From positions 3,248 to 67,247 of the forward strand of contig CAZLOB010000070.1 in the NCBI GenBank assembly GCA_964561135.1: a DNA stretch of 64,000 nt. The letters run 5' to 3'. How positions within the stretch are numbered: the stretch's first letter is position 1; every line of letters begins with the position of its first letter. Shown here piece after piece: positions 1,181 to 35,854 of the stretch. The DNA is from an uncultured Elusimicrobia bacterium (GTDB lineage Bacteria > Elusimicrobiota > Endomicrobiia > DTEH01). The position numbers were made by a program, and so were the translations under genes. Under the pieces are notes generated by a model. The model was given only the letters and a program-made list of their open reading frames with translations. It made no database searches and was not told the DNA's origin.

Positions 1181-1256
1181 GGCCCGTATAATCTGCAAAA
1201 ATATGGTTTGTAGAGTTTCTACGGGACGAACCGTAAACTTGTCTCTGCTACGGGCC
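1181..1256 (+). promoter_or_regulatory. purine riboswitch aptamer, guanine-type (C at the specificity position)
   Basis: P1 ggcccgta(1181-1188)/tacgggcc(1249-1256). J1/2 tataat. P2 ctgcaaa/tttgtag with loop atatgg. J2/3 agtttctac. P3 gggacga/ttgtctc with loop accgtaaa. C1248 lies directly 5' of P1-3'. Near-identical in the conserved joints and loops to the B. subtilis xpt aptamer. Confidence 0.88.
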
Positions 1257-1412: not shown

Positions 1413-1470
1413 ATATATATTGGTAATTTTGGCTACGAGAGCAATAAATCTTTTCTTTCTAGTTTATTTT

Positions 1471-4400
1471 ATGAAAATTAAAGTTTTATTAGCTTTTGTT
1501 TTATTCTTTGTATCATCTTCCACTTCTTATACTGCTAACTTATTAAACAACGCAGGATTTGACGAACTTCCTGCATTAACAGGATGGACACGTAGTGGAA
1601 CACTTTCAAGCGGTGTTGTAACTTCACCTGTTACAAATGCTCCGTATGCAGCAAGGATTTCTACATCCGCTTCTACAGGAAATAAAGCTTTATATCAAAA
1701 TGTGAATGTGTATGAAGGTAAAAGATATGTTTTATCAGGTTATGTATACTTAGTTGTTGCGCAAGGAGGTGAATCTGTCGGGTTAGGACTGAAACCCGGA
1801 GGAGGTGGTGTTGCATCAAGCTGGTTTCCAGATGTTTCAAATTCAACATCAGCAACTACTCAAGATAGATGGGTATATTTAACACTAAGTACAAAAGTCC
1901 CTTTTGGTGTGTCAACTTATGGTATTAATGTATATCTTCGTACTTCAGGTGCGCTATCAACATGGGCTACTGGATATTTTGACGATATTTCTTTTGTATT
2001 CATAAGTTCGCCACCAGGAAAAGTCACAAATTTTGTTGCTGAGACAGGAAGAGTTGGTGGAGAGATAAATTTATCATGGGTCTGTGCAACTGCTACTATT
2101 GGATATGAAGATGATTTACCGCCAGGATGTTCTTTTTATATACAATACGCAAGTTGGACAGGGGTGAACTTTTCAACATTGACTCTTCCTAACCCACCAC
2201 CAGGTGTGTATCATATATGGATACCAACAGGTCCTGTGGTTTATGGAACAAATTGTTACTACACAATAGCTGGTCTTCAAGAAGGTGTAACTTATTATTT
2301 TAGAATTTGGGTAATAGATAATTCTGGTAACTGGTCCGAGATTTCTGACAGTGCAACAACACAGGCTCAAATTACACCACAACCACCAAGTAATTTAGAT
2401 GTTTTTTCAATATCTTCATCAACAATAAGGCTTAAATGGACACCTTCAAATGCTGTATGGTACAGAATTGAACATTCATCAGTATCTAATTCTGAAAGTT
2501 GGGTTTTTAGGTCAACTGTAGTAGCAAAAGCAGGTGAGTATATAGATGATAATTTAGTTCCGAGTTGTACTTATTGGTATAGAATGTTTGGTATTAATTC
2601 TGCAGGTATTGTGAATTGGTATCAGCCAAGCAATATAGTAAAAACAATAACTTATCCTGCAGCACCAATAAATTTTACTACACAAACAATCTCAGCAACC
2701 TCAATTGTTTGGATATGGGAACCTATTGGTTATGCTGATGGGTTTATAATCTATCAAGCAACATCACCAAATACAGAAGTAGTAAAAATTCCGTTTGGTA
2801 TTAATACTTACGAAGAAACAGGTCTTTCAACAAACACTGCGTATGGTAGGTATATTCGTGCGTTTAACAGTAGTGGTTTCAGTGAATTATCAGCTAAAAC
2901 TACTGTTTATACATTAGCAGCGACACCTGTAAACCTTTCGTTTATTGCTGTACACTATACAAGTGTAACTTTTAGTTGGTCTGCTAATGGTAATCCTTTA
3001 GGAACAAGATATGAAGTGTCACAATCAATTGATAATTTCCAAACTAATTTTTCTACTCCTATTCCTTACACCTATGAAACCGTTGTGACTATAAGTGACC
3101 TTGTTCCTTCAACTACTTATTATTTTAGAGTTAGAGCGTTTAATAATGATGATGTGCCTACAAGTTTTTCTATAGTTATAAACACGACAACACTATCTCT
3201 ACCACCACCAGATATTTGTATCACAGAAGTTTTAGCAAACGATTCTCATTCTACTGAAGGTCCTGGCGAGTTTGTAGAAGTTTACAACCGTGGCTTGGTA
3301 GAAGTAGATTTAGCAGGTATGTTTTTATGTGGCGAAGGTGATACTAACGATAATATTGTTGATTACACAGGCCATAATGATTTAGGTCAGCCTGGGACTA
3401 TACTTTATCCGGGATGGTACGCTCTTATTGTAGACCCTGACTATGACGGATGGTATAATGATTGTATCCAACAGCATGCCGATTTAAATAAACTGATAAT
3501 GTTAACAATACACCAAGATAGTACTTTAGGTAGTAGTAGATTAGCCAACACTTTTGAGTCAGTATGGATAGTTTCAGGAACTGTTGTTTTAACTTCGTTT
3601 ACTTGGGTTTCAGATGCAGGTAATGGTAAATCTTGGGAAAAGATAGATTATTTGGGTCCAGCAATTGACAGGTCTGATTCATGCAACTGGGCTGTGTCAA
3701 CACATCAGTCAGATAATAATTCTTATTGCACACCTGGATTTTTAAACAGTGTATCAGGAAGCGGTCCACCACCGTTACTACCGTCTCAAGAAGATATAAA
3801 CCCCTCAGATGTTGTTATAAACGAATTTTTATATGATGCTGTTTCCACAGATAATGGTAATGAATGGATTGAGTTATATAACAATCTTTCAACAATGAGT
3901 GTAAATCTTGCTGGTTGGAAGATACAAAAATCTACAGGTCCTACATTAGATGTTGCTGTATGGACAGATTTGTTTGTAATAACTTCTGGCAGTATTTCTC
4001 CTAATGGATACTTTTTATGTGCACAATCAACCGCTGCAGTAAAATATCAAGCAGATTTTACATATTCTGACTCAGCAACAATGAACAATTCCGCTCCGTC
4101 TGCAATACGATTGGTTACACCTTCAGGTAAAGAGATCGACAGGGTAGCGTATGGTGGTGCAAGGTCAGACAATTTAGCAGAAGCTGATAAAGCAACGGTT
4201 GGTGCTTCTGTAGGACAAAGTTTGTCAAGATCTCCTGATGGAAAAGATACTAATAATAACTACAACGACTTTATAATGTTATCAAACCCTACACCTACAA
4301 ATTCATCAGGTCCTGACAAGATACCTCCTGCTTCAATTACTGACCTTGCTGCAGAAACAGGACAAAATCCAGGTGAGATTATTCTTAGTTGGACAGCACC

Positions 4401-7400
4401 TGGTGATGATGGTTTATTGTATAACAACACTAAAGAAGCATATTATATTGTAAAATATGCTACTTACCCTGTAAAAGAGTCTACAACCATATGGTGGCAA
4501 CAAGCAGTAGAATATGTTCAACAATGGAATGTTGCATCACAGGGGCTGAAAGAACAAAAAGTTTTACAAGGGTTCATCCCAGGAACAACTTATTATTTTG
4601 CTATAAAAACAGTTGATGATAGTAGGAATGTATCAGATATTGATATCAATGCACAAGATCTTTCAACACAAGCAAAAGCTTATGCACAAGTTGGTTCCAT
4701 TGGTTCTTTAATACGGATAAATGAAGTTGCACCTGACCAAACTTCTACTGCAGGATATGATTGGATTGAATTCTATAACGCGTCGACACAAGCAATAAAT
4801 GTTTTCGGATGGAAGATATATGAAGTGTATACGAGTTCAACAGAACCAATTGAAATAATAGAAGCAAATTGGTTCTTCCCAGCAAACAGTTATCTTGTGT
4901 TAAGATTTGGTCAACAACAAAGAAATATGACAGTGCCACAACAAATATCGCCAAATTGTTACGAACTTTATACAGATAAACCGGGCCTTGCCGCAACTGA
5001 TAACATTATAGTTTTAGCTGATAAAAATGACAATTGGATAGATGTTGTTTGTTATACAGATAGAAGTGGAAGTATATCAAATGCTACTCGGTTCCGACAA
5101 GCATACAACTATGCTGTTTCTATAAATGAATGGTATGGACCCTATGCAGATGAGACAAACGATGATGAAATAGAATACTGTTGTGCATCAACATTGTTTA
5201 TGTCATCAGACAGGTCTTTAGCACGGGATGAATCTTCAACCGACGGAACAAACCCGTCTGTTAACGAATGGTATTTAACTCTAACACTGACATGTGGTGC
5301 ACCTAATTCAGGTATAGACAAAATACCACCAGCCGCTGTTACAACACTACAAGCAACTGCTGGCCCTAACCGTGGACAAGTGAAACTTTCCTGGATATCA
5401 GTTGGTAATGATGATTATACAGGCACAGCAGCAGGATATATGTTAAGATTTAATACATTTCCTATTACAGAAGAAAACTTCTTTCATTCATCAACAAATG
5501 CTGACAGAATCTCAAAAGATAAAAAAACAGATACTATCTATATGAAACCAAAAATAGCTGGAAAAATTGAAACAACTGTCGGTGTATTACCTGTTGGACA
5601 AACTTATTATTTTGCATTAAAAGTATTAGATGAACGTGTTAACTTTTCAGCAATATCTAATGTAGTGTCTTTTGTCCCACCGAATGTTGTTGGGTCTAAT
5701 ATAAGAATAAACGAATTCGCAGTATTAGAATCAACACATACAGGTGGTGATTGGGTTGAGTTGTATAACGCGTCAGAAGATCCTGTTAACATTAAAGGGT
5801 GGACACTGTGGGGTATAAAAGTAGCAGAAACAACTCCGTCTAAGATAAAAAAGTTTCCTGATATTACCTTAGCTCCAAAAGATTATCTTGTGGTAAACTG
5901 TGTCTTGGGGACGGATGAAACAACTTCAAAAGGTGAAAATGGATATTGGGATGTGTACACAAATTATGATATAAAAGGGTTTGACGGTGTTTTATTTTTA
6001 ACTGATGAAGGTTTTAGTAGTGATTATGATAATATAGTAGATTTTGTAGCATATACATCTGGTGGTGTTTCCTCGTGGAAGGATATATGGAATACAGCAT
6101 GTGATTGTAATCAATGGTCACCATATATAAATACTGATGCTGAAGGTGTAAACTACGCAGTAGATTGGTCTTCAGGGCAAACAGGTTTCTCTTTAGGTCG
6201 GGATAGGTTTTCAACTGATAATGACAATATTCTCCATAATGCAAGAGATGATTGGAAATTATTTCGTGTTCCAACAAAAGGATATCAAAATGATGATATC
6301 CCACCTGCTGCTATTACTTATATTGTTGCAACTTATGGTGAAACAGAAGGTTCGATTAAACTTACATGGATAGTACCTGGTGATGATGAGTTCATTGGGG
6401 TAAATTATGGCAAGTATGAGATAAAATATGCTACATTTACAGTTGAAACTTCATCAACAGTATGGTGGCAACAGATTTCTAAAAGAAGTGAATACAGTGG
6501 GGTTGTTGAAGTTAAAATAGGTGTTGATATTTCAACAACGCAACCATATGAAACTGTAAGTTATACAATTACAAGATTGTTCCCAGGGTTAACTTACTAC
6601 TTTGGAATAAGGACATACGATGATATAGGAAATGTTTCTGAGTTAGATTTGTATTTATCAAACAACGAGCCTGTTTTTGCAGTAGCGTTTGATACAATAC
6701 CTGCAAAAGTTCAAAATCTTAATTTCTTTGTAAAAAACAAAACTATAGAATTTAGCTGGGATAAAAATAAAGAACTTGATTTTGACCGTTATGAGATATA
6801 CTGTGATTCAGGGGTGGGATTATTCTTTGTTAGTGCTACTACAAATACTTGGTTTGAACACAAAGGATTAAAAAATGGGCTAACCTACTATTATGAACTT
6901 TATGCAGTAGATATTAAACAAAACAAAAGTTTACCAACTTTTGGTTACACAATACCAAAAATGTCACCTCCGACAAAACTTTCTGCCGAACATTATGGTT
7001 GGTATGTAAATCTTGAATGGCAACATTCAGTAGATTATACTGCTGATAATTTCTTAATGTATAAAATATATCGTAGTAGTTCTCAACACGGTTCTTATGT
7101 AAGTATATCAACTACTACTAATAATTTTTATAAAGATAACAATATTCAAAAAGGCAGTTGTTATTACTATTATATTGTATGTGTAGATAATGATTACATT
7201 GAAAGCGAACTTTCAAACATTGCAGTAGCTGTACCTGATCTTATTTCGCCAAAATTTGTACATATTTCAAAACTAACTTCTCGTGATTTAGCTAAAGATA
7301 TTGCAAAAATTGACATTAAAGTTGTAGATGACAGGTTTGAAGAAGGAGATAGACAAGGTAAATTAGTTTCTTTAGAAGGAAAATATAAAGTTATTGGTTC

Positions 7401-7848
7401 TCAAGAAAAATATAGTGTAAAATTTGATCCAGATTTTATCGCAGGTTTAAAAGAATATACTGGTCAAGCAGAATTTGACTTCACTTTGATAACAATTGGT
7501 GATAAAGGTATAGAATATCAATTTATTGCAAAAGATGAAGTTAATATATCATCTTTTCCAATAGATGGAAGTTGGTATAAAGTTGAACTGCCTAAAGACC
7601 TACCTCAACAAAAGTTTATAACTGACCAAAACCCAGAGGTTGTTTTTGGTAGCAACGTTGAAGAAGTTATAATTTATGACCAATTTGGTAATAAAGTTTG
7701 GGGGAAAACTAAACAGTTTGAAAATCAACTGATAGTATGGAAAGGGAAAGATAAAAATGATAAAAATGTAGAATCAGGTACGTATATATATCAAATTAAA
7801 ACAAAAGATGGGAAACGTAAGTATGGTGTAGTGATTGTAGTGAAGTGA
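1471..7848 (+). CDS. giant secreted surface protein: CBM-like N-domain, FN3-like repeats, four lamin-tail-domain (LTD) modules, C-terminal FlgD-Ig/T9SS-CTD-like tail
   Basis: Track ORF 1387..7848. Start moved to ATG 1471 (MKIKVLLAFVLFFVSSSTSYTA signal-like). LTD motifs: ITEVLAND..EFVEVYN, INEFLYD..EWIELYN, RINEVAP..DWIEFYNAS, RINEFAV..DWVELYNAS. FN3-like YYFRVRAFN and YYFAIKTVDD. Tail ..GTYIYQIKTKDGKRKYGVVIVVK. Confidence 0.85.
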   Translation: MKIKVLLAFVLFFVSSSTSYTANLLNNAGFDELPALTGWTRSGTLSSGVVTSPVTNAPYAARISTSASTGNKALYQNVNVYEGKRYVLSGYVYLVVAQGGESVGLGLKPGGGGVASSWFPDVSNSTSATTQDRWVYLTLSTKVPFGVSTYGINVYLRTSGALSTWATGYFDDISFVFISSPPGKVTNFVAETGRVGGEINLSWVCATATIGYEDDLPPGCSFYIQYASWTGVNFSTLTLPNPPPGVYHIWIPTGPVVYGTNCYYTIAGLQEGVTYYFRIWVIDNSGNWSEISDSATTQAQITPQPPSNLDVFSISSSTIRLKWTPSNAVWYRIEHSSVSNSESWVFRSTVVAKAGEYIDDNLVPSCTYWYRMFGINSAGIVNWYQPSNIVKTITYPAAPINFTTQTISATSIVWIWEPIGYADGFIIYQATSPNTEVVKIPFGINTYEETGLSTNTAYGRYIRAFNSSGFSELSAKTTVYTLAATPVNLSFIAVHYTSVTFSWSANGNPLGTRYEVSQSIDNFQTNFSTPIPYTYETVVTISDLVPSTTYYFRVRAFNNDDVPTSFSIVINTTTLSLPPPDICITEVLANDSHSTEGPGEFVEVYNRGLVEVDLAGMFLCGEGDTNDNIVDYTGHNDLGQPGTILYPGWYALIVDPDYDGWYNDCIQQHADLNKLIMLTIHQDSTLGSSRLANTFESVWIVSGTVVLTSFTWVSDAGNGKSWEKIDYLGPAIDRSDSCNWAVSTHQSDNNSYCTPGFLNSVSGSGPPPLLPSQEDINPSDVVINEFLYDAVSTDNGNEWIELYNNLSTMSVNLAGWKIQKSTGPTLDVAVWTDLFVITSGSISPNGYFLCAQSTAAVKYQADFTYSDSATMNNSAPSAIRLVTPSGKEIDRVAYGGARSDNLAEADKATVGASVGQSLSRSPDGKDTNNNYNDFIMLSNPTPTNSSGPDKIPPASITDLAAETGQNPGEIILSWTAPGDDGLLYNNTKEAYYIVKYATYPVKESTTIWWQQAVEYVQQWNVASQGLKEQKVLQGFIPGTTYYFAIKTVDDSRNVSDIDINAQDLSTQAKAYAQVGSIGSLIRINEVAPDQTSTAGYDWIEFYNASTQAINVFGWKIYEVYTSSTEPIEIIEANWFFPANSYLVLRFGQQQRNMTVPQQISPNCYELYTDKPGLAATDNIIVLADKNDNWIDVVCYTDRSGSISNATRFRQAYNYAVSINEWYGPYADETNDDEIEYCCASTLFMSSDRSLARDESSTDGTNPSVNEWYLTLTLTCGAPNSGIDKIPPAAVTTLQATAGPNRGQVKLSWISVGNDDYTGTAAGYMLRFNTFPITEENFFHSSTNADRISKDKKTDTIYMKPKIAGKIETTVGVLPVGQTYYFALKVLDERVNFSAISNVVSFVPPNVVGSNIRINEFAVLESTHTGGDWVELYNASEDPVNIKGWTLWGIKVAETTPSKIKKFPDITLAPKDYLVVNCVLGTDETTSKGENGYWDVYTNYDIKGFDGVLFLTDEGFSSDYDNIVDFVAYTSGGVSSWKDIWNTACDCNQWSPYINTDAEGVNYAVDWSSGQTGFSLGRDRFSTDNDNILHNARDDWKLFRVPTKGYQNDDIPPAAITYIVATYGETEGSIKLTWIVPGDDEFIGVNYGKYEIKYATFTVETSSTVWWQQISKRSEYSGVVEVKIGVDISTTQPYETVSYTITRLFPGLTYYFGIRTYDDIGNVSELDLYLSNNEPVFAVAFDTIPAKVQNLNFFVKNKTIEFSWDKNKELDFDRYEIYCDSGVGLFFVSATTNTWFEHKGLKNGLTYYYELYAVDIKQNKSLPTFGYTIPKMSPPTKLSAEHYGWYVNLEWQHSVDYTADNFLMYKIYRSSSQHGSYVSISTTTNNFYKDNNIQKGSCYYYYIVCVDNDYIESELSNIAVAVPDLISPKFVHISKLTSRDLAKDIAKIDIKVVDDRFEEGDRQGKLVSLEGKYKVIGSQEKYSVKFDPDFIAGLKEYTGQAEFDFTLITIGDKGIEYQFIAKDEVNISSFPIDGSWYKVELPKDLPQQKFITDQNPEVVFGSNVEEVIIYDQFGNKVWGKTKQFENQLIVWKGKDKNDKNVESGTYIYQIKTKDGKRKYGVVIVVK

Positions 7849-7858
7849 ACAGGTTTTT

Positions 7859-7908
7859 AGTTCAAAGTTTAAAGTTCAAAGTTAAAATTAAAAGTTTAAA
7901 GTTTAAGT
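7859..7908 (+). repeat. AAGTTNA-type heptad microsatellite array
   Basis: agttcaa agtttaa agttcaa agttaaa attaaaa gtttaaa gtttaag read directly; 7-nt period. Confidence 0.8.
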
Positions 7909-7926
7909 AAGAGAAAAGAAGAAAAA

Positions 7927-8272
7927 TGAACAAAATAAATAATAAAGAATTAAATTTTGAGAATTTAGAAGTGTATCAAAATTACTAAAAATTTTCCTAA
8001 ACAAATACAATTTTCTTTAGCAGACCAATTAAGAAGAGCATCGTTGTCAATTTGTAATAACATTGCAAAAGGATGTGGCAACACACGATAAAAGAAAAGA
8101 ATTGTTTTACAATTACGTTTTAAACTCTGCAAGAGAATATTTCCCTGGTTTAGAAATTACTCTAAAACAAAATTTGATAACTAATAAAATATATTCAGGT
8201 TTAAGGGAGGAATGTTTGATTATTTGTAAAATGTTAAAAAAGTTAATTATCTCATTAGATAAAACTAGAATA
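7927..8272 (+). pseudogene. four-helix-bundle protein (23S rRNA IVS protein / Avd family), frameshifted
   Basis: Three frames together give MNKINNKELNFENLEVYQN / KNFPKQIQFSLADQLRRASLSICNNIAKGCGNT / DKRKELFYNYVLNSAREYFPGLEITLKQNLI..ECLIICKMLKKLIISL. This matches the family pattern LEVWQ..FPK.E.y.L..QLrRAa.SI..NIAEG. At least two frame breaks. Confidence 0.6.
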
Positions 8273-9235
8273 AAAAATTTGTGTTTTTTAATCTTCTTTA
8301 AACTTTTAACTTTTAACTTTCAACTAACAGAGGCAGCTTTTCAAAATACAGCATGGTCTGTTTCTGCAGAGAGTATGGGTGGTGTTGCTGTTGCTTACAG
8401 CAATGAACCGTTTGGCGTTTTTTATAATCCAGTAAATATTGTAAATGTTGAAACTAAAAGTTTACAAATTGCTTATTTAAAACCATATCTTGCTTTAGAA
8501 AATATTGATATAAATTTAAACACCATTGCTTTTGTGTTACCTAAAAAATATGTGTCTTTATCAGCAGCAGTTGGGATGTATAATGTGAACAATTTGTATT
8601 ATGAAACTACAACTATTTTTTCATTTAGTACAATATTGAAAAAATTTTTTGATAACTTACCATATATATCAATTGGGACAAATTTAAAATTTTTAACAAA
8701 AAGATATAAATTTGATGAAGGAATTTTAAACTATCAACCAGAACTAAAAAATAAAAATTCAACAACTGTTTTCTCAACAGATATCGGATTAATTACAAAA
8801 ATGCTAAAAGATAAACTTTCGTTAGGAATAGCAATAAAAGATGTTAACCAACCTAATGTGGCTGTAGTCTCATCTGAAGATATTGTTCCTTTGACAGTAA
8901 GTTTTGGTGGAACATATAATATTGGCGATATAAAAACAATACTATATTTTGAAGATTTTACTGTAGGGTGTGAACTAAGATATAGAAACCAAACATGGGG
9001 AACTACACAATCAAAACTTTTTTATGGGATAGGATTTCAAACTTATTTTAATTTTCATACAATAGCAATTCGTGCAGGAATAAATAAAGAATCTATAAAT
9101 TTTGGTTTTGGATATAATGGTATAAAACTTTCGCAAAAAATTCTTATGAATATTCAATACGGATTCGGTTTGTCAACAGTTGTTTTTGACAATTCTGCTG
9201 GTACACATAGGATCTCTTTTGAGATACAACTCTAA
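8231..9235 (+). CDS. predicted outer-membrane beta-barrel protein (FadL/PorV-like N-terminal motif)
   Basis: Track ORF 8063..9235, whose first ~56 codons are the four-helix-bundle remnant. ATG 8231 gives a signal-like MLKKLIISLDKTRIKNLCFLIFFKLLTFNFQLTEA. AESMGGVAVAYSNEPFGVFYNPVNI motif and alternating beta-strand pattern. Confidence 0.6.
   Translation: MLKKLIISLDKTRIKNLCFLIFFKLLTFNFQLTEAAFQNTAWSVSAESMGGVAVAYSNEPFGVFYNPVNIVNVETKSLQIAYLKPYLALENIDINLNTIAFVLPKKYVSLSAAVGMYNVNNLYYETTTIFSFSTILKKFFDNLPYISIGTNLKFLTKRYKFDEGILNYQPELKNKNSTTVFSTDIGLITKMLKDKLSLGIAIKDVNQPNVAVVSSEDIVPLTVSFGGTYNIGDIKTILYFEDFTVGCELRYRNQTWGTTQSKLFYGIGFQTYFNFHTIAIRAGINKESINFGFGYNGIKLSQKILMNIQYGFGLSTVVFDNSAGTHRISFEIQL
8296..8325 (-). 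repeat. AAGTTNA-type heptad array, inverted relative to 7859..7908
   Basis: ctttaaacttttaacttttaactttcaact is the reverse complement of agttgaaagttaaaagttaaaagtttaaag. Confidence 0.75.
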
Positions 9236-9335
9236 CAGAAGTCGATATTTGAATGTTGGCTTTTGGAGTGTTGTTATTAAACGGCTGCTCAAAAATAAAT
9301 TGTAAAGGCAGAAAATAAAAAATAATAAAGAAAGG

Positions 9336-10736
9336 TTGTATTATGTGATGTATACAATCGTATTTATTGTATTTTTAATACCTTCTTTTTTTTCATCTTT
9401 ACTATTATATTCACAGATAAATGTTTATTTTACTGACCCGTATAACGATGTCCCATCAATAAGTTTTCTTTCAACGGCGAAAAAACCTATTGATTTTGCA
9501 TTAAAAGATTTTATTGATTCTGTATCACCACAAACAACAATGTATGTTTGCATTTATGAAGTGAATAATACTACAATAACTACTGCGATAGATACCGCAG
9601 TGAACCGCAGGGTAAAAATTTATGCTATTTTTGGCAAAGATGTTTCAACATCTGTATTCAAAAGTAGTTTTGAATATAAAAAGATTGGTTTTTCATCACA
9701 AATTATGCATAATAAATTTGTTGTAGTAAAAAGTTCAAAGGTATGGACTGGTTCTTATAACTTCACAGTTTCAGCTACATATGACCAAGATAATTTTGCA
9801 TTAGAAATTTTTTCTAAAGAACTTGCAGAAATTTATGAAAAAGCATTTCTGTATATGTGGGATCATGGTAATGATATAACCATATCCACAAGGATTGCTG
9901 AGTTTAATAATAAATCTGTTGATTTTATTGACGGGACAAAAATTACTGTTTATTTTAATCCGTATTCACAAAATCCACAGTTAAAAAATGTTTTAATAGA
10001 CAACTGGTACGATGTTTTTGAAGAAAAACCAAAAATAAAAAATTTATATTTTACAGTTGCATGGTTTACTTTGGAAGATGTTAGTGATATCATTAAAATG
10101 TTAAGAGATAAAAATGTAGATATTTTTGGTATCATTGATGATGATAGCCAAAATTTTAGTATGTATCAAAAATTAAGAAATTATGGTATATCAATATATT
10201 TTGATGCAAGAAGAACTTTTTATGGTGAAGGGCTTATGCATCACAAGTACTGTGTTGTAGATCCGTTTACAAAAAATGCAAAAGTTATCTGTGGTTCTGC
10301 AAACTGGTCTGATGCAGCATTAACTTCAGAAAGTAATAAAAATTATGAAAACCTTCTTGTGATAGAATCACAAAAAATTGCAGAAGTGTTTTATAAAGAA
10401 TTTTTAAGGTTATACAACAAGACTGTTTCACAACAAGTTTCTACTTCTTTATCCGATGAGATGATTGAAAATATAATTTTTTATCCAAATCCTGTAAAAG
10501 AAAAACTTAATATAAAGTTTAAACCAAACTTCAGTGTTAAAGAAATAAAACTTTTAATAGTTTCGTTATACGGTGTAAAAATTTATGAAAAAAATTTAGA
10601 TTTTGTTTCTGGGATAGAAAACAAAATTGAAGTTGAGTTACCAAAAGATATTTCTTATGGATTATACAATATCATTCTTCGTGTTAAAGGTTTTAATGTT
10701 CAAAAAGATTATGTTAAGAAGATAGTTGTGAAGTGA
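9336..10736 (+). CDS. secreted phospholipase-D-superfamily (two HKD-like motifs, Nuc-like) protein with CTD-like tail
   Basis: MHNKFVVVKSSKVWTGSYNFT and HHKYCVVDP..VICGSANWSDAAL. N-terminal hydrophobic segment. C-terminal IIFYPNPVKEKLNIKF...YVKKIVVK. The start could be ATG 9348. Confidence 0.75.
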   Translation: MYYVMYTIVFIVFLIPSFFSSLLLYSQINVYFTDPYNDVPSISFLSTAKKPIDFALKDFIDSVSPQTTMYVCIYEVNNTTITTAIDTAVNRRVKIYAIFGKDVSTSVFKSSFEYKKIGFSSQIMHNKFVVVKSSKVWTGSYNFTVSATYDQDNFALEIFSKELAEIYEKAFLYMWDHGNDITISTRIAEFNNKSVDFIDGTKITVYFNPYSQNPQLKNVLIDNWYDVFEEKPKIKNLYFTVAWFTLEDVSDIIKMLRDKNVDIFGIIDDDSQNFSMYQKLRNYGISIYFDARRTFYGEGLMHHKYCVVDPFTKNAKVICGSANWSDAALTSESNKNYENLLVIESQKIAEVFYKEFLRLYNKTVSQQVSTSLSDEMIENIIFYPNPVKEKLNIKFKPNFSVKEIKLLIVSLYGVKIYEKNLDFVSGIENKIEVELPKDISYGLYNIILRVKGFNVQKDYVKKIVVK

Positions 10737-11716
10737 GTAGGTATAAAAACAACAGTGGACAGCAGGTTGTGAAAATAAAAAAACAAAAAAATATTTTCGT
10801 TATTCTATTTAAGTATTGTAGAAACTTTTTGTTATTTATTACACACTGTTTTCATTTTGTACTTTTTTCCTACATGCTACTTACTATATACTTTCTTGTT
10901 TTCTTTTCACCTGCTTATGGTTTTCTCTTTGAGCCATACTTCCTTGCATATTCAGCAGAAGAGACAGTTTATATGCAAGCATTAAAAGTTTTGTCTGAAG
11001 GAAAAGAATCAGCTGGGAACAACCCTGCAGGTTGCGCTCTTGAAAATAAAAAATCTGTTTCTTTTGGATTCACAAGTTTGAATTTAAAAGATAATTTATC
11101 AAGTATAAAATTGTTTTTGCCCAAAAAGATTGCTAATTTAGTGATATCTTTGAAACATGCAAACTTTGGTGAGACAGAGTTTGTTTCAGAAAATTTTGAT
11201 GTAAAAAAAGATAGATTGTATTCTTTAATTTTAAATACATCTTTAGGTAAAGAAATGTTTATACCAGGACTGTTTTTAGGGATTGATTTAAATTTTGGTA
11301 ATATGAAACTTGATGAAACAATACAAACATTTGGTACTTTGTGTGGAACAAGATATATGATAAATTTTGGTTCGATAGAACTTCATCTTGGATCAATTTT
11401 TGGTTCATATTTTGCTAAAAATGAGAATCTATTTTTTTATGCATTTGGTATAAAATATTATCTTCCTGAATACAAAAGTTTTTTATCTTTAGCTTATAAC
11501 AAAAATGTTTATGAATTTTTAACTATAACATTTGAAATGGACTTGATAAAAAATTTCTTGTTAATTATTGGATATGAAGCTTTTAGCCGACAATTAAATG
11601 TCAGCTATTCTTTAGGTGGGGAATTTAAGATAAAAAATTTTGAGTTCATTTTATCAACAAGATATAATATAAATTTATATCCTACACTAAGTTTATCAAT
11701 AAGTTATTCATTATGA
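10733..11716 (+). CDS. predicted outer-membrane beta-barrel protein
   Basis: ORF track. Internal ATG 10874 gives MLLTIYFLVFFSPAYG signal-like start. NNPAGCAL motif. Amphipathic strand pattern to the C-terminus (LSLSISYSL). Start uncertain. Confidence 0.5.
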   Translation: MSRYKNNSGQQVVKIKKQKNIFVILFKYCRNFLLFITHCFHFVLFSYMLLTIYFLVFFSPAYGFLFEPYFLAYSAEETVYMQALKVLSEGKESAGNNPAGCALENKKSVSFGFTSLNLKDNLSSIKLFLPKKIANLVISLKHANFGETEFVSENFDVKKDRLYSLILNTSLGKEMFIPGLFLGIDLNFGNMKLDETIQTFGTLCGTRYMINFGSIELHLGSIFGSYFAKNENLFFYAFGIKYYLPEYKSFLSLAYNKNVYEFLTITFEMDLIKNFLLIIGYEAFSRQLNVSYSLGGEFKIKNFEFILSTRYNINLYPTLSLSISYSL

Positions 11717-12735
11717 ATAAAAAATTCTTTTTTATTTTATTTTTTTTAATTTTCCCATTTATCGTTCACTCTTTACCACCATTAATAATAACAGAAGTTG
11801 CACCAGGTGAAGCATCAACAAAAGATTGGATTGAAATTTTTGTTTCTTCTTCAGGTAATTATAACGGATATAAAATCTACAGTGGTTATCCAAAAAGAGT
11901 AATAAAAATCTTACCTTCAAGAGAATATAAAAGAGGTGATATCATAGTAATCATGATGAACACTTCTTTAGAAGATGCGCAAACAAAACAAAATTATTGG
12001 ATATTTTATTCTACTGATACAACAGGGCTTTATGATTCTGAGGGTTTTGTGTATATTACTACTCCTTATGACAACTGGATCGATGCAGTTGGTTGGTCAA
12101 ACAGGGATGGTTCTATAGCAAAAGATGCAATAGACGCTTATAACGAAATGAAACAAAACAATATGTGGAAAGAAGGTCCTCAAGTCGCTGACGGGAATAA
12201 CGATGTTGAAGTACAGAACTCTTTGGTTGACTGGTCATTAGGTGCAAAAACAGATGCTGCGTCTATACAAAGACGGAAAGATTTTTTTGGCTTACCAATG
12301 GATGCTGACTCAATCTATGATTGGTATTATTCAAAAATAGCAACTTTTGGATACGGATATAAAGAAGTTGTTTCAGAAACACAAAAAATAGTTGAAGTTG
12401 ATAAAAACACAAATCCGTTTTGTCCTGAGGATATAAACAATAGTTTTGTGAAAATAAATTTTAATATAGAAGATTTTGATGCAAAAAAAACTATAGTTAT
12501 TTACGATATCACAGGCAAAGAAATTATAAAACTATTAGATAAAGATAGATTACCCAATGGCGACCTTTCAACATATTCTTCAGTGAGGGCAGGAAGTATA
12601 ACTTGGGATGGTAGAGATTCATCCTCTAAACGTGTTCCAACTGGTGTATATATTGTATATTTTGAAGCGTATAATCCTACAAATGGTAAAAGATACATTA
12701 GTAAAGATGTTGTTATTGTAGGGAGGAAGTGGTGA
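11713..12735 (+). CDS. secreted lamin-tail-domain protein with FlgD-Ig/CTD-like tail
   Basis: Signal peptide MNKKFFFILFFLIFPFIVHS. LIITEVAPGEASTKDWIEIFVSS and NWIDAVGWSNRDGS match LTD modules 3 and 4 of the giant protein. Tail TIVIYDITGKEI..GVYIVYFEA..DVVIVGRKW. Confidence 0.75.
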   Translation: MNKKFFFILFFLIFPFIVHSLPPLIITEVAPGEASTKDWIEIFVSSSGNYNGYKIYSGYPKRVIKILPSREYKRGDIIVIMMNTSLEDAQTKQNYWIFYSTDTTGLYDSEGFVYITTPYDNWIDAVGWSNRDGSIAKDAIDAYNEMKQNNMWKEGPQVADGNNDVEVQNSLVDWSLGAKTDAASIQRRKDFFGLPMDADSIYDWYYSKIATFGYGYKEVVSETQKIVEVDKNTNPFCPEDINNSFVKINFNIEDFDAKKTIVIYDITGKEIIKLLDKDRLPNGDLSTYSSVRAGSITWDGRDSSSKRVPTGVYIVYFEAYNPTNGKRYISKDVVIVGRKW

Positions 12736-12743
12736 TAGTGATG

Positions 12744-12770
12744 TTAAAAGTGAAAAAGTTGAAAGTTTTA
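12744..12770 (+). repeat. AAGTTNA-type heptad/octad repeat
   Basis: ttaaaagtgaaaaagttgaaagtttta immediately after the stop codon at 12735. Confidence 0.6.
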
Positions 12771-12781
12771 ACAATAGAAAA

Positions 12782-12905
12782 TGTAAGACAAGGATTTATC
12801 CTTGCAATAATTTAAGTTTTTGTGTCGTAATTAGTATGGATTGAATCGTCAGTTACAAAAAACTTTGCTCTGGTCCTTTATGCAAACTTAAAAGTTTGTC
12901 CTACA
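12782..12905. repeat. TGTAGGGCA-family hairpin element (degenerate copy, inverted termini)
   Basis: tgtaagacaagg-attt-atccttgc (12782-12805) and gcaaac-ttaaaa-gtttgtcctaca (12882-12905). Termini TGTAAGACA / TGTCCTACA are inverted repeats. Confidence 0.6.
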
Positions 12906-12920
12906 TTTTTAGAAGAAAAA

Positions 12921-14375
12921 ATGAACTTTAAACTAATTTATATCTACATATTTATACATTTACTTATTCACACATTTACTACTTATCTTTATCCTTTATT
13001 TGAAGAAAAAGATCTTTTTGCAAACACTGCAGCGTTATGTAATGCGTATACAGCTGCTGATGACAATGTTGTTTGTGTATATTATAACCCAGCAGGTATT
13101 TTCAATATACCAAAAGGTGGTTTCTATTTTTCAAATACAAAATTTTATAGTATTGACGAACTTGCATCAAATACAATATCTGTTTCTTTAGATGTTAAAC
13201 ATTTTGGCAAAGTTGGTTTTTTGTATAATATTTTTGGTTTTGATTTGTATAAAGAAAACTTATTAAAATTTGTTTATGCGAACAGTATTTTAAGAAAGAT
13301 TTCGTTTGGTATAGGAATTAATTCTTTATCTGTGAATATAAAAAACTATGGTTCTAAAAGTTTCCTAAGTATTGATTTAGGTGTTTTAGCAGAAGTTACA
13401 AGAAGTTTTCTTTTAGGATTTTATATAAAAAATTTTGATATACCAAAAGTTGCTGAAGATGAAATTGTTACACATACACTTGTTACAGGAGCGAAAATTG
13501 CTCCTTTAAAAGATGTGTCAACATATATTGATGTTGTAAAAAAAACAGAACAAGATGTTTTTGCAAGAATTGGCGAAGAAATAAAACTTAATATAATAGA
13601 TAGTTTGATAACAATATTTCGTTGTGGTGTTGAAATAGCAACAAAGGTCAAACCTGCAAAATATGCGGTTGGTTTCGGGTTAGGATATAAAATAGGTTCT
13701 TCAGAAATTATAATTGATTATTCTTATTTGTTACACACAATTTTAGGTAGCCAATATCTTGTTTCTTTAAGCATAAGTTTTGGTAAAAAAGAAAAAGAGT
13801 TTTTTGAAGAAATAAAACCTACAGGACAAAAAAGAAAAGCAGCGGTCAAAAAAATAGAACTTCAACCAAAATCTATAAATATTAATACTGCAACTATAGA
13901 AGAACTTGCAGAACTGCCTGGTATTGGTCCATCAACTGCACAAAAAATTGTTGAATATAGACAAAAGATAGGAAAATTTATTTCTGTTGAACAGCTGCTT
14001 GAGGTACCTCGTATCGGTACTCTTACGCTACAAAGAATAAAACCATATATAACTGTTGAAGTAGAAGAAAAACAAATACAAGAAGTAAAACCAGAAGTTG
14101 AAAAGAAACAAAAAGAAGAACAGTTGTTTATTCCACCACTTGATCTACCATCACAAGAAAAAATAGAAGTAAAAGAAGAAAAACAAAAGTTTAATTTGAA
14201 TACTATAACAGAGGAAGAGTTAATTAATTTAGGTTTCTCTTCAACTGCTGCAAAAAATGTTATAAGATATAGAATAAAAGTTGGTAAATTTAAATCAGTT
14301 GATGAACTATATAAAATACCATTTGTTGAGAAATCGTTGGTTGATAAACTTAAAGAAAAGTTTTATGTTGAATAA
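12921..14375 (+). CDS. outer-membrane beta-barrel (FadL/PorV-like motif) fused to two ComEA-type helix-hairpin-helix DNA-binding modules
   Basis: N-terminal half: NAYTAADDNVVCVYYNPAGIFNI plus strand pattern. C-terminal half: NINTATIEELAELPGIGPSTAQKIVEYRQKIGKFISVEQLLEVPRIG and LNTITEEELINLGFSSTAAKNVIRYRIKVGKFKSVDELYKIP, separated by K/E-rich linkers. Confidence 0.75.
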   Translation: MNFKLIYIYIFIHLLIHTFTTYLYPLFEEKDLFANTAALCNAYTAADDNVVCVYYNPAGIFNIPKGGFYFSNTKFYSIDELASNTISVSLDVKHFGKVGFLYNIFGFDLYKENLLKFVYANSILRKISFGIGINSLSVNIKNYGSKSFLSIDLGVLAEVTRSFLLGFYIKNFDIPKVAEDEIVTHTLVTGAKIAPLKDVSTYIDVVKKTEQDVFARIGEEIKLNIIDSLITIFRCGVEIATKVKPAKYAVGFGLGYKIGSSEIIIDYSYLLHTILGSQYLVSLSISFGKKEKEFFEEIKPTGQKRKAAVKKIELQPKSININTATIEELAELPGIGPSTAQKIVEYRQKIGKFISVEQLLEVPRIGTLTLQRIKPYITVEVEEKQIQEVKPEVEKKQKEEQLFIPPLDLPSQEKIEVKEEKQKFNLNTITEEELINLGFSSTAAKNVIRYRIKVGKFKSVDELYKIPFVEKSLVDKLKEKFYVE

Positions 14376-14378
14376 ATA

Positions 14379-16598
14379 ATGGTTGTAATATTATTCTTAA
14401 TTTCAATTTTTTGTTTTCAAAACTTATTCTGTGTAGAATTCAAACTTAATTCTTCAACACATACAACAGAAAAATTTTTGTCTGAAGAAGAACAAACATT
14501 AGAAGAATTATATGAAGAAATTGATAAAATAGAAGAAGAAACAGTTAGTGTTTATTTTCAAGAAGAGATACATTTATATCAAGAAGATGAAGGTTTTTTA
14601 GAATCATTACAGCAAAACCCGTTGGATTTGAACACTGCAACTTATCTTCAACTTAAATCTCTTCCTGGTATAACTGATGAGTTAGCACGGAAAATTGTCC
14701 GTTATAGAAGGTTAAATCCGTTTAAATCAAAATCTGAACTTAAAAAAATTGTTGATGCAGAGGTTTATAATAAAATATCACCTTTTGTTATTGTAGATAA
14801 AGTAAAAAAAGCAGCACAACTTAACGGACAAGTAAGAATAAGATTTTATCCTGAAGAAAAGACAGAAATTAAAACATATTATCAACCTAAAGAAAAGTTT
14901 GAACAACCATATTATTTTTACAATAGGACACAACTTTCTTATGGTGATAAACTTTCGTTAGGATATGTTTTTTTACATAAACCTAATGAAAACGTCCCTT
15001 CTTTAGAAAGTTTCAGTTATCTACTTCGTAAATGGTGGGTAAGGTTAAACTCAATAGGTCTGTTCGATAAAATAATTTTTGGTAATTACAAAGCAGGGTT
15101 TGGTTATGGTATGGTGTTTCACGAGAACGCTGCTGTATCAAATTTAGTAGGTTCTGTTAAACCGAAGATGCGTGGGTTAAGAGAAGATAAAAGTACTGCG
15201 GATAATGCATATCTTTATGGTTTGGGTTTTGAAAGTAATATAGGTAATCTTGAATATTCCATTTTTTATTCGCAGAAAGATTTGATCACAAAAACAACTG
15301 TGTTTACAGAAGTTGTTCAAACAGATGAAGAAGAGCAAACAATTGTTTCTTCCTATACAATTGACGATTTAATTGACATTCGTAACGACTATGTTGAATA
15401 TGATAAATATTTGTTAGATTATGATGTAAACATAGAAACATCAACAATTAACAAACTGCCAAAAAGAAAAGTTCAAGAACAACTTGTAGGAATAAATTTT
15501 TTGTTCCCAATAGATGTATTTAAAATAGGTTTTTGTGGGTATTATGCAAGATATGACAACCCTTTTGATCCTGATAAAACAAAAGTTTCTGGCTATGATC
15601 TTGTAGACAAGTATTCAGAACGATGGAGGTATGTTTATCGCGGGGATAACTTAGTAGTAGGAAGTTTATATTTTGAGTTTCCTTTAGATAAACTTATATT
15701 TTTTAGTGAATTAGCACAAAGTAAAGCATATTTTTCACAACAGTCAACTTCTACATTTTCTTCACAACTTGGTAGTGGAGTAAACCTGGGTATTCTTTTA
15801 TTTTTAAGTCGAACAAAGTTTTATTTGTTATACACATATCTTGAACCAACTTTTTATTCACCATTAGGTATACCAATAAAAATTTATGATTATCCTAACA
15901 GTCAACGAGGTATAAAAATTGGTAATAGTTATAAATTCAAAAATGGTGAGATAAACTTTTCATATGGTACAGCTGAATTATTTAAAGGTATCTGGAGTGG
16001 ACATTGGAGTTCTGAACAACCACGGTTCCCATCAAGATATAACGAAATTTTTTTTGAAACAAAATATAAAGTTTTTAAAGATATTGAACTTTATTTCAGA
16101 ACAATAGATGATTTAAGAGAAAGATACATAGACTTAAAAACTTATGGTCTTTCATTAGAACAGCAACTTGTTCAAACACAACAGTTAAGGATAAAAAATA
16201 GGTATCAAGTGTCAACAAGTATATTAAAAGACACAATATTAAAGATAAGATATGACCATCAATGGCAAAAGTTTATAGATTACGGAAAATCATATTATGG
16301 TGAACAACTTTGTGCTGAACTAAAATATAAATTTTGGGGTTTTACAATAAACAGCAGATTCTGTATTTTTAATTCTGATGAACAAGTATATTTAAGTTAT
16401 CTTGAGCCAAAATGGTATAACTTGTATATGTTAGAAACTGAAGAAAATGCTGGGGGAGATAAATTTTATTTTACTTTTTCATACAAAATTTCAAAAAATA
16501 AAATTTTGTGGCTCAGGTATAGATATAAGTTTTATACAACAAAAGTTGTTGATCCGACAGATACTGAATTTAGAATACAAATAGATTATGGGTTTTGA
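14379..16598 (+). CDS. ComEA-type HhH module fused to a large predicted outer-membrane beta-barrel
   Basis: Signal-like N-terminus, acidic stretch, LDLNTATYLQLKSLPGITDELARKIVRYRRLNPFKSKSELKKIV, then ~600 aa of Y/G/F-rich alternating sequence ending ..EFRIQIDYGF (terminal aromatic residue). Confidence 0.7.
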   Translation: MVVILFLISIFCFQNLFCVEFKLNSSTHTTEKFLSEEEQTLEELYEEIDKIEEETVSVYFQEEIHLYQEDEGFLESLQQNPLDLNTATYLQLKSLPGITDELARKIVRYRRLNPFKSKSELKKIVDAEVYNKISPFVIVDKVKKAAQLNGQVRIRFYPEEKTEIKTYYQPKEKFEQPYYFYNRTQLSYGDKLSLGYVFLHKPNENVPSLESFSYLLRKWWVRLNSIGLFDKIIFGNYKAGFGYGMVFHENAAVSNLVGSVKPKMRGLREDKSTADNAYLYGLGFESNIGNLEYSIFYSQKDLITKTTVFTEVVQTDEEEQTIVSSYTIDDLIDIRNDYVEYDKYLLDYDVNIETSTINKLPKRKVQEQLVGINFLFPIDVFKIGFCGYYARYDNPFDPDKTKVSGYDLVDKYSERWRYVYRGDNLVVGSLYFEFPLDKLIFFSELAQSKAYFSQQSTSTFSSQLGSGVNLGILLFLSRTKFYLLYTYLEPTFYSPLGIPIKIYDYPNSQRGIKIGNSYKFKNGEINFSYGTAELFKGIWSGHWSSEQPRFPSRYNEIFFETKYKVFKDIELYFRTIDDLRERYIDLKTYGLSLEQQLVQTQQLRIKNRYQVSTSILKDTILKIRYDHQWQKFIDYGKSYYGEQLCAELKYKFWGFTINSRFCIFNSDEQVYLSYLEPKWYNLYMLETEENAGGDKFYFTFSYKISKNKILWLRYRYKFYTTKVVDPTDTEFRIQIDYGF

Positions 16599-16746
16599 TT
16601 TTCTTGTTTTTTTAAAGCTGCGGAGGGGGTGTGCCCAATATAGTAATAATAAGTTGTGTTTAAACACTTATACTTTATTTTATATTCGGAAAATTGTTTG
16701 TAAAATGTCAGAATAAAAATTTTTTAAAAATTTTTTAAAAATTTTG

Positions 16747-16775
16747 TTGACAAAACACAAAATTTTGTTCTATAT
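16747..16775 (+). promoter_or_regulatory. sigma70-type promoter for the pilin gene with a palindromic spacer
   Basis: TTGACA 16747-16752, 17-nt spacer containing the palindrome acaaaattttgt (16757-16768), ctatat 16770-16775. Phased A/T tracts upstream (16716-16746). Confidence 0.45.
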
Positions 16776-16844
16776 ATATTATTAGGGCAGGGGTGGTTAT
16801 TTATACATTCCCCAAAACTATGCCCTGAAAGGAGGTGAATAAAA

Positions 16845-17339
16845 ATGATAAAAAAATCTAAAGGTTTTACTTTGATAGAATTAATGGTAGTAGTTGTTAT
16901 ACTTGGTATACTTGCGGTAGTTGTTGCGCCGAGAATCCCTGACCTTGTCAAAAAAGCAAAAGAAGGTGCTACAAAAGGTTCTCTCTCTACACTCAGGTCT
17001 ACTTTGAACATATATTATAGTGATACTGAAGGATTTTATCCAGCAACTCATTGGAGTAAGGATGATGCTGCGGATGGATATAAAGATGTTAGTAATGTTC
17101 TTCACGAATCTTTAGTGCCAAAATATATAAAAGCAATACCTATGGTTAAATTACCTACTGCTCATAAGGACGATTCTGATAGAGTAATTGTATACAAAAA
17201 TCTTCCTTCAACTCTTACAGATGAAGATTTGGGCTATGGTTGGGGATATGGTTCCGTATATGGGACTGAGACATATGGAAATATAATTGTTAACTGTATA
17301 CATACAGATACTAGTGAGAAATATTGGTATGAATATTGA
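16845..17339 (+). CDS. type IV pilin / pseudopilin with prepilin N-terminal methylation motif
   Basis: MIKKSKGFTLIELMVVVVILGILAVVVAP. Strong SD aggagg 16830-16835. Confidence 0.9.
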   Translation: MIKKSKGFTLIELMVVVVILGILAVVVAPRIPDLVKKAKEGATKGSLSTLRSTLNIYYSDTEGFYPATHWSKDDAADGYKDVSNVLHESLVPKYIKAIPMVKLPTAHKDDSDRVIVYKNLPSTLTDEDLGYGWGYGSVYGTETYGNIIVNCIHTDTSEKYWYEY

Positions 17340-17349
17340 TCATTTAAGA

Positions 17350-17391
17350 TAGGCAGCTTGGTGGTTAGCCAGGCTCCCTATTCTCGTTTTT
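17350..17391 (+). terminator. rho-independent terminator after the pilin gene
   Basis: taggcagcttgg / ccaggctcccta stem (one mismatch, one G-U), loop tggttag, T-rich tail ttctcgttttt. Confidence 0.5.
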
Positions 17392-17408
17392 ATTAATAAA
17401 AAAAATAA

Positions 17409-18170
17409 ATGTTTTTATTCTTAGTATTTATATTAGGTCTTATCTTTGGTAGTTTTGCAAATGTTTTAATTTATAGGATACCGCGCAAAATTTCTATCCT
17501 TTATCCAAATTCGTTTTGTCCACATTGTGGCTCATCTATAGTTTGGTATGATAATATACCACTATTAAGCTATATTTTTCTTTCTGGTAGATGTAGGATT
17601 TGTAATAAAAAAATTTCTTTACAATATCCCATTGTTGAACTTTTATGTGCAATTTTATCTGTGTTTGCATATTTGAAATTTGGTATTGATAAAATGTGGA
17701 TTTTTTTTAATTTATTTTTTATTCTTTTGGTTATAAGTGTTATTGATATTCAAACTACAGAGATACCTAATGTATTATCTTTTTATCTAATAATTTCTGG
17801 AATATTTTTTTCAATTTTTAATCCAGCCTTAGGTAAAAAAGTTTTGATAGGAGATACTATGTATATAAGATTAGTAAACTCGTTGATAGGTGGAATCTTT
17901 GGATTTGTAATTTTTTTCTCAATACAACTTTTAGGAGACAAAATTTTTAAGAGACCTATTTTAGGTGGTGGCGATGTAAAACTTTTAAGTGGTATTGGTA
18001 CATATTTAGGTGTTCAATCGTTGTTGAAAATTATATTTTTTTCATCGTTAGTAGGGACAATTTATGTGTTTATTTTAAGCATTGTAAAGAAAAGAAAACT
18101 TTTTGGCGAGTACATCCAGTTTGCACCGTTTATTTCTATTGGTTGTCTAATATATGTATTCTTACTTTAA
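17409..18170 (+). CDS. pilD: prepilin peptidase (A24 family)
   Basis: Cys-rich N-terminal CPHCGS..CRICNK, multiple TM segments, GGGDVKLL motif. Confidence 0.88.
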   Translation: MFLFLVFILGLIFGSFANVLIYRIPRKISILYPNSFCPHCGSSIVWYDNIPLLSYIFLSGRCRICNKKISLQYPIVELLCAILSVFAYLKFGIDKMWIFFNLFFILLVISVIDIQTTEIPNVLSFYLIISGIFFSIFNPALGKKVLIGDTMYIRLVNSLIGGIFGFVIFFSIQLLGDKIFKRPILGGGDVKLLSGIGTYLGVQSLLKIIFFSSLVGTIYVFILSIVKKRKLFGEYIQFAPFISIGCLIYVFLL

Positions 18171-35790: not shown

Positions 35791-35854
35791 CTCAATTGGA
35801 TAGAGCGTCTGGCTACGAACCAGCAGGTTGCGCGTTCGAGTCGCGCCGGGCGCA
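35781..35854 (+). tRNA. tRNA-Arg (anticodon ACG)
   Basis: Manual cloverleaf: acceptor GCGCCCG/CGGGCGC, D stem GCTC/GAGC, anticodon loop CTACGAA, T arm GCGCG-TTCGAGT-CGCGC. CCA not encoded. Confidence 0.9.

Follow-up and report, generated by a model that had tools for sequence, protein, structure and literature searches.

What a purine riboswitch aptamer is doing directly ahead of a gene for a giant secreted protein, and how binding of a purine base could reach that gene, is the question raised by this locus. It lies in the window, the 64,000-nt stretch of DNA that was analysed, which has 29% G+C and whose closest named DnaE homologues (69–71% identity) come from MAGs labelled Endomicrobia, Endomicrobiia or Elusimicrobiota. 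The reading we favour, with a probability of roughly 0.55, is that the aptamer belongs to a guanine/hypoxanthine-class transcriptional ON switch that acts on the giant gene and perhaps also on the genes for DNA handling that follow it.

We regard it as practically certain that the aptamer is real. An Rfam scan of the whole 64 kb window placed an RF00167 (Purine) match at 1164–1270 on the forward strand, the strand of all leader elements described below, scoring 54.1 bits where the gathering score is 37 (E = 1.9e-06 over 64 kb and 4227 families; E = 1.1e-08 for the leader alone). Three gathering-level matches were obtained in the window, two tRNAs and this one purine aptamer; the scan returned no second purine aptamer in the 64 kb. 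Over 1090–1480, a permissive Rfam scan brought up no further known RNA family; its hairpin matches, to the terminator hairpin termed D below, were at chance level. The P1–P2–P3 three-way junction (1181–1256) can be read directly from the sequence as P1 (1181–1188 and 1249–1256), J1/2 (UAA, 1189–1191), P2 (1192–1199 and 1207–1214), L2 (AAUAUGG, 1200–1206), J2/3 (GUUUCUAC, 1215–1222), P3 (1223–1230 and 1238–1245), L3 (CCGUAAA, 1231–1237) and the ligand-pairing base C1248, equivalent to C74. The L2/L3 kissing loops (AUAUGG and CCGUAAA) match the consensus exactly, and P2 and P3 each have one pair more than the Rfam consensus. A sequence-only reading of this DNA had named these elements and proposed the comparison with RF00167; the elements are where it put them, and the Rfam score confirms the family.

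The same reading had typed the aptamer as guanine-specific, and the binding pocket agrees. When compared with the guanine-I pocket definitions of PMC6847200, PMC9295807 and PMC10556655, the first-shell bases U22 (U1189), U47, U51 and C74 are all present, and the top pair of P1 is A21–U75 (A1188–U1249). J3/1 (1246–1248) is UGC against a consensus of AC, with an extra U and a G replacing A73, and is aligned by Rfam as GC plus a bulged C in P3; the two-base J3/1 of guanine-I (A73 and C74) is therefore not what this RNA has. Since in xpt the A73C change lowers affinity only about 2-fold (PMC6847200), G at position 73 is probably tolerated. Adenine riboswitches carry U74, and 2'-dG-II riboswitches carry C51, a G–C pair topping P1 and two extra bases in J3/1 (PMC6847200). 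Position 74 is C in the window and in the related leaders L011, L016 and L022, and the window RNA has U51, an A–U top pair of P1 and a one-base J3/1 insertion. Xanthine-II RNAs are marked by U51G, and both they and the 'guanine-II' variants by insertions in J2/3 as well as J3/1 (PMC9295807); here J2/3 has its canonical 8 nt and position 51 is U, which sets the RNA apart from xanthine-II and from the three-stem-junction 'guanine-II' variant. Deletion of U47 characterizes 8-oxoguanine riboswitches (PMC10556655), and in the window U47 is present in a full-length J2/3. From these pocket bases we infer guanine/hypoxanthine as the probable ligand class.

Upstream of the aptamer is a DUF192 gene (584–1003), and downstream, at 1471–7848 on the forward strand, is the giant gene. 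Its 2125-aa product has a signal peptide, and by Pfam it combines LTD (four matched stretches) and fn3 repeats with a CHU_C type IX secretion signal; this upholds the earlier description of the next ORF as an LTD/FN3 protein of ~2100 aa. Its start, 1471, lines up with those of the orthologues. An in-frame ATG at 1387 was rejected as the start; it lies in the 3' arm of hairpin D, is ATA in L012 and is not conserved. Leader ORFs of 25, 24 and 57 aa were likewise rejected as coding. The purine biosynthesis genes had been said to carry no such leader; purL (44238–46622) and purQ (46598–47383) are confirmed by Pfam, and the window holds no aptamer for them.

The leader would start from a promoter-like TTGACA-17-TATAAA (1095–1100 and 1118–1123) that was read from the sequence, the pattern scan having missed it on account of an A at position 6 of the -10 hexamer. 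Its GTTGACA is invariant in 10 of 10 distinct leaders. Strand A (1244–1267) runs from the end of P3 through J3/1 and the P1 3' strand and extends 11 bases beyond. It can pair either with the 5' strand of P1 or with strand C (1309–1330), which is the partner chosen in minimum free energy (MFE) folds. Strand C, defined by folding and alignment, contains a copy of the P1 5' strand (GGCCCGUAG) and is complementary not only to strand A but to the whole 5' arm of hairpin D. The A:C helix has 22 bp and −45.5 kcal/mol. Two nucleotides past it is a U7 tract (1333–1339), and a U-rich tract starts at this same distance in all lineages (GUUUUUCU and GGUUUGUUUG in relatives). Helix and tract together make up a predicted terminator, T1, which is formable only with P1 open.

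The second terminator, hairpin D with its T9 (1346–1412; arms 1346–1365 and 1388–1403, T9 1404–1412), emerged from a hairpin and T-run scan as a strong intrinsic terminator of −26 to −29 kcal/mol, the strongest combination of hairpin and T-run in the 64 kb. A simple terminator scan, restricted to loops of 3–8 nt, was empty over 1–2000; the broader one found D as well as hairpin B with its T8, which sits at the tip of A:C. The rank of D among the hairpins of the window suggests a dedicated attenuator role. Canonical intrinsic terminators are almost absent from gene ends across the 64 kb, D being by far the strongest, and the host genome may rarely use them outside regulatory leaders. The D loop varies: L022 and L014 share an insertion of ~45 nt (GGGTAAGAAAAGTTGCAG...), and L020 has another long loop, the stem being kept throughout.

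Both helices are confirmed by comparative evidence. In a nine-sequence alignment, 92.9% of cells are paired in A:C, with changes on both sides in 2 pairs, and 99.3% in the 16 pairs of D, with both-side changes in 3. Pooled over A:C, B and D, 96% of cells are paired with five both-side-changed pairs (2 in A:C, 3 in D), against 34–49% in slid controls. A:C and D are therefore real, selected helices.

These elements can be arranged into a switch. Without ligand, strand A would pair with strand C, and the A:C helix followed by its U-run would stop transcription at ~1340 (T1); any read-through of T1 would be halted by D at ~1412. With ligand, P1 would retain strand A such that T1 could not form, and the freed strand C, together with a hairpin E, would make an antiterminator by pairing with the 5' arm of D, allowing RNA polymerase to proceed into the giant gene. 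P1, A:C, C with the D 5' arm, and D would thus form a chain of four mutually exclusive helices. The first half of this scheme has the architecture of a pbuE-type switch, in that the P1 3' strand lies within the terminator stem (A:C) and U7 follows at 1333–1339. Given control in cis, ON polarity is likely.

The antiterminator is the more tentative element. In folds of the nascent transcript with strand A withheld or the aptamer enforced, every lineage has the pairing of C, E and the D 5' arm as the MFE structure of its C-to-D5' segment, with energies of −15 to −25 kcal/mol. The window gives −16.4 kcal/mol (z −1.6) against −26 for D, and L016, L011 and L022 give −20.7 to −25.1 kcal/mol (z −3.0 to −4.5). 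Hairpin E (GAGAA and UUCUU, 1327–1345), the apical part of the predicted antiterminator, appears in the nascent-transcript folds of all lineages; one of its pairs, compared by eye, is A–U in the window and G–C in L016, and its columns in the MAFFT alignment are inconsistent. Of the antiterminator cells, 82% are paired against 15–48% in slid controls. Between 10 and 12 of its 12 pairs can form in four aptamer-bearing lineages, compared with 6–9 of 12 in three strains that have lost part of the aptamer through a 41-nt deletion, where the D stem has become more perfect by loss of an internal mismatch. Covariation within the antiterminator was sought twice, and no compensatory change was seen in any pair.

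Thermodynamics alone would favour termination. When the aptamer is forced in the full transcript, D still forms and wins over the antiterminator. The leader has a free energy of −97.7 kcal/mol when free and −79.3 kcal/mol with the aptamer forced, energies here being computed mainly at 37 °C, which may not be the growth temperature of the host. Because of this gap, control must be kinetic and co-transcriptional. The two tRNA genes of the window (35781–35854, forward; 35995–36080, reverse) have 65% and 59% G+C in a region of 29% G+C. Such GC-rich tRNAs may hint at growth at a raised temperature, which would weaken the predicted antiterminator. D bears also on a caveat of the sequence-only reading, which would have been undermined by a transcript ending before 1471. 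To the letter this caveat applies, since terminator D (1346–1412) intervenes, but a regulated terminator is what is expected of a transcriptional riboswitch, and a candidate antiterminator exists.

Related leaders tell how strongly the aptamer is held. Identical DUF192 proteins were found on 13 metagenome contigs, whose leaders are near-identical to that of the window and so uninformative; leaders L001–L009, of the same species, differ only by a C/T polymorphism within the loop of D and, in L009, a single substitution. Orthologues of the giant protein and a search for the hairpin B pattern yielded nine further distinct leaders, each located between DUF192 and a giant gene wherever flanks are available. 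The aptamer is intact in L011 (and L023), L016 and L022, with RF00167 scores of 54.8 (L011), 58.1 (L016) and 57.0 bits (L022) at the same position. It is 95% identical to that of the window in L011 and L022, at an evolutionary distance where pyrG 4-fold sites are 43–56% identical (window lineage against L012 or L014). The aptamer is therefore under purifying selection where present, and in the window lineage it is very probably a working sensor. The segment from A to C is 84–88% identical in lineages outside the window's own clade.

Elsewhere the aptamer has been lost. L012, L018, L019 and L021 share the 41-nt deletion, which removes the P1 5' strand and P2 and adjoins a direct repeat, TATAATCTGC, that L011 has upstream of and inside the aptamer. 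The DUF192 proteins of L011 and L012 are 97% identical, and the deletion is recent, since these are near-identical strains. They differ by the 41 nt at L011 6990–7060 and L012 9735–9770, and the deleted form occurs in several metagenomes. The remnant left by the deletion shows 3 changes in 36 nt between L012 and L011. In L014 and L020 the aptamer is wholly absent. Rfam detected no purine riboswitch in the more distant orthologous clusters (L015, L104–L106), and the exact hairpin B pattern had no match in species-representative genomes. A pyrG scan of that collection returned only relatives of at most 64% identity, leaving the lineage unrepresented there, and those 80 loci were excluded. Retention of the aptamer by orthologous giant genes, put forward earlier as a check, hence holds for three lineages (L011, L016 and L022) and fails for the L012 type, L014, L020 and the distant clusters.

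On balance we favour control of the giant gene by the riboswitch in cis. It would not be the only route to expression. In lineages without a complete aptamer (those with the 41-nt deletion, L014 and L020), A:C, B and D are kept and the giant gene is intact with dN/dS of 0.28–0.45; as it is under purifying selection there, the riboswitch is not the sole means of expressing it. The distance from D to the ATG ranges from about 45 to >200 nt across lineages. The giant gene itself behaves as a freely recombining, swappable cassette, judging from sequence comparison: the window and L016 are 98% identical in pyrG and only 37% in their giant proteins, with similarity breaking off directly after D and post-D sequence 43% identical. 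The regions compared were 1413–7848 of the window and 9798–20971 of L016. L012 and L014 show the reverse pattern, with diverged housekeeping genes and giant proteins that are 96% identical.

The genes behind the giant gene form a same-strand cluster (8063–17339, forward; Pfam and NCBIfam). It begins with a PorV-like barrel in the ORF at 8063. Next come a two-domain PLD nuclease that is NucT-like and has a type IX secretion tail (9336–10736), a further barrel protein, and a protein of 340 aa (11713–12735) whose end resembles a type IX secretion C-terminal domain and whose N terminus shows, by eye, an LTD-like motif. Two DNA-binding proteins of ComEA type with helix-hairpin-helix repeats (12921–16598) and a pilin or pseudopilin (16845–17339) follow, all of these genes being on the forward strand. 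The first ~65 residues of the 8063 ORF match a TIGR02436-type family, and so the true start of the PorV-like gene is probably further downstream. The stretch 7848–8300 is repetitive and AAAGTT-rich and includes this short four-helix-bundle-like (TIGR02436-type) fragment. No terminator-like site was seen on the forward strand between the stop of the giant gene (7848) and the PorV-like gene. Beside the pilin gene is one for a prepilin peptidase (16845–18170 for the two), and ComEC, with Competence and Lactamase_B domains, is encoded at 32486–34666; the presence of pilin, prepilin peptidase and ComEC in one window fits a theme of DNA uptake around the cluster led by the riboswitch.

The closest NCBIfam model to the PLD protein is the nuclease NucT, and its best PDB matches are chains named mitochondrial cardiolipin hydrolase (4GGJ and 9LKX), which we take to be the MitoPLD/Zucchini nuclease. 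In L016, and not in the window, the giant protein itself carries a fused PLD domain, and in distant Elusimicrobia clusters the giant LTD protein has a further LTD protein and proteins of ComEA type as neighbours. Extracellular nucleases, ExeM for example, can contain LTD domains, whose role there is unsettled (PMC6085458, PMC8289736). Because of the NucT-like PLD, ComEA and pilin genes, the L016 fusion and the LTD context, the unit looks like a surface apparatus that would bind, cut and take up extracellular DNA rather than a plain adhesin. Purine bases freed from degraded nucleic acid could then induce capture, cutting and uptake of extracellular DNA, and the purine link plausibly concerns nucleic-acid scavenging or uptake rather than adhesion as such. 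The earlier proposal that free purine base is linked to expression of a surface structure survives in modified form: the aptamer is directly upstream of the giant gene and is kept there in three other lineages, but the gene product is not just an adhesin, and control of it would follow from the leader model.

The main competitor of a switch on the giant gene is that ligand acts on a leader RNA alone. Transcription from ~1095–1123 would always end at T1 or D, ligand would set the length or conformation of an RNA of ~210–280 nt, perhaps trans-acting or binding a factor through B, and the giant gene would have its own promoter past D. We consider this unlikely, though it accommodates several observations. 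D is very strong and thermodynamically beats the antiterminator; the block from promoter through D is discrete and conserved, in contrast to the 43% identity between window and L016 that follows; A:C, B and D persist in aptamer-less lineages with the giant gene still under purifying selection; and the near-invariance of B is as expected of a functional RNA surface. A promoter-like motif is moreover conserved after D in L011, L012, L014 and L022 (for example TTGAAC-18-TATATA in L011), yet in the window neither pattern scan nor reading made a sigma-70-like promoter evident between D and the ATG (1413–1470). Nor does a plain terminator need its entire 5' arm to have a complement in strand C, as that of D has in all lineages, and this complementarity decays after deletion of the aptamer. 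No target or partner of such an RNA is known, and the module always has a giant LTD gene immediately downstream of it, in the same orientation.

Two further alternatives leave less room. Ligand binding might lower expression of the giant gene, as an OFF switch or through an action other than termination. Lowered expression under plentiful guanine is common among guanine-I riboswitches (PMC9295807), shutting off scavenging when purines are replete would be physiologically sensible, and aptamer-less lineages, which are locked in A:C yet need the gene, would fit if A:C were permissive. A:C leaves both arms of D free and has its own U-run, however, such that the ligand-free fold would contain two terminators, and reading of the sequence upstream of the giant-gene ATG revealed no Shine–Dalgarno that could be masked; we hold this alternative to be very improbable. 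The least probable is a relic, an aptamer that regulates nothing today, the purine gene it once controlled having been lost or displaced by the recombining giant-gene cassette. Independent deletions of the aptamer in sister lineages, the giant gene as a recombination hot spot and a gap between T1 and D of only ~6 nt, as though an intervening gene had been excised, would all suit it. Against it stand the 95% identity of the aptamer where neutral sites are at ~50%, the intactness of pocket bases and both kissing loops, and aptamer substitutions that preserve base pairs; real decay is what the remnant of the 41-nt deletion displays, with its 3 changes in 36 nt.

The ON switch that we prefer leaves one conserved element, hairpin B, unexplained. 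Hairpin B (AUAGGC and GCCUAU with a 9-nt loop; 1277–1297, or 1277–1304 with its T8) has a 22-nt core that is the same in all lineages bar one A/G position, with 6 of 6 pairs invariant. It is near-invariant even in L020, where E is replaced and D has compensatory changes. No Rfam family matches it, and the window contains one copy only. The UAACCCU preceding it is near-invariant too (region 1268–1308, core 1275–1296), aptamer-less lineages included; near-invariance of the region extends across L011, L012, L014, L016 and L018–L023, with neutral sites ~50% identical. Its AACCC could pair with GGGUU of the B loop as a pseudoknot, CCUAUAGG in the B region is palindromic, and a T-loop was considered as an alternative reading of the hairpin. 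B may act as a pause site or provide a binding site.

A two-input attenuator would give B a place. Seated within A:C, it would be a second sensor, a site for a small molecule or for a protein that works as an anti-antiterminator, with or without the guanine aptamer, and the two inputs would jointly gate the LTD surface protein, which is hypervariable, recombining and type IX-secreted, and the cluster for capture and uptake of extracellular DNA. This would explain why B is intact in aptamer-deleted lineages; we consider it doubtful, and decidedly so. Attenuators of comparable logic are the PyrR-controlled pyr leaders, built of anti-antiterminator, antiterminator and terminator with a conserved loop at the anti-antiterminator tip. 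The window leader resembles them in its chain of mutually exclusive helices, the first deciding the last, and differs in that its identified input is an RNA aptamer, not a protein. Hairpin B is presumably unlike the PyrR binding loop.

The guanine-responsive ON switch proposed here can be compared with characterized riboswitches. With guanine-I (Bacillus subtilis xpt-pbuX, RF00167) the window RNA has in common the junction, the L2–L3 loop sequences, J1/2, J2/3, the first-shell bases and the A–U top of P1; it differs in its longer P2 and P3 (one pair more in each), its UGC J3/1 and its predicted ON polarity. Guanine-I riboswitches commonly turn genes off when guanine is plentiful, and their targets are purine biosynthesis, salvage and uptake (PMC9295807), unlike the giant secreted LTD/FN3 protein encoded here. 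The pbuE (ydhL) adenine riboswitch is described as switching ON through disruption of a terminator (Mandal and Breaker 2004, as cited in PMC9295807). As in pbuE, the P1 3' strand doubles as the 5' arm of a terminator, and ligand-stabilized P1 is predicted to block termination. Unlike pbuE, the window RNA has C74 rather than U74, its terminator stem encloses hairpin B, and the leader adds a second strong terminator, D, that requires an antiterminator step.

The nearest parallel in gene context is 2'-dG-II, with phospholipase D and ComEC as well as endonuclease I among the downstream genes given in PMC8872408, citing Weinberg et al. 2017. The two share a structural family, a J3/1 insertion and a context of DNA-handling genes. 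They are told apart by U51 in the window instead of C51, an A–U instead of a G–C top pair and UGC (one inserted base) instead of UCAC (two), and 2'-dG-II is reported from Bacteroidetes (PMC8872408), whereas the window lineage is related to Endomicrobiia. The regulon membership claimed as unusual from sequence alone is indeed so for guanine-I; in the purine family at large it has a precedent in 2'-dG-II, as far as the downstream genes listed in PMC8872408 go. Outside that family, the c-di-GMP riboswitch Bc2 RNA controls the collagen adhesion protein of B. thuringiensis (PMC4933901) and likewise occupies the 5' leader of a large surface-protein gene. c-di-GMP riboswitches have another aptamer fold, and their ligand is a lifestyle second messenger, not a metabolite base.

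The leaders with an intact, a 41-nt-deleted or an absent aptamer, in each case with the rest of the leader kept, constitute a set of natural variants that can serve as ready-made mutants for gain and loss of an expression platform. If the proposed switch is correct, the guanine-I regulon would extend from purine metabolism and transport to a surface or secreted apparatus for extracellular DNA, with ON polarity and in a poorly known phylum. It would be the second independent purine-family riboswitch coupled to genes for DNA scavenging or uptake, after 2'-dG-II, and would strengthen the idea that breakdown products of nucleic acids serve as inducers of DNA harvesting.
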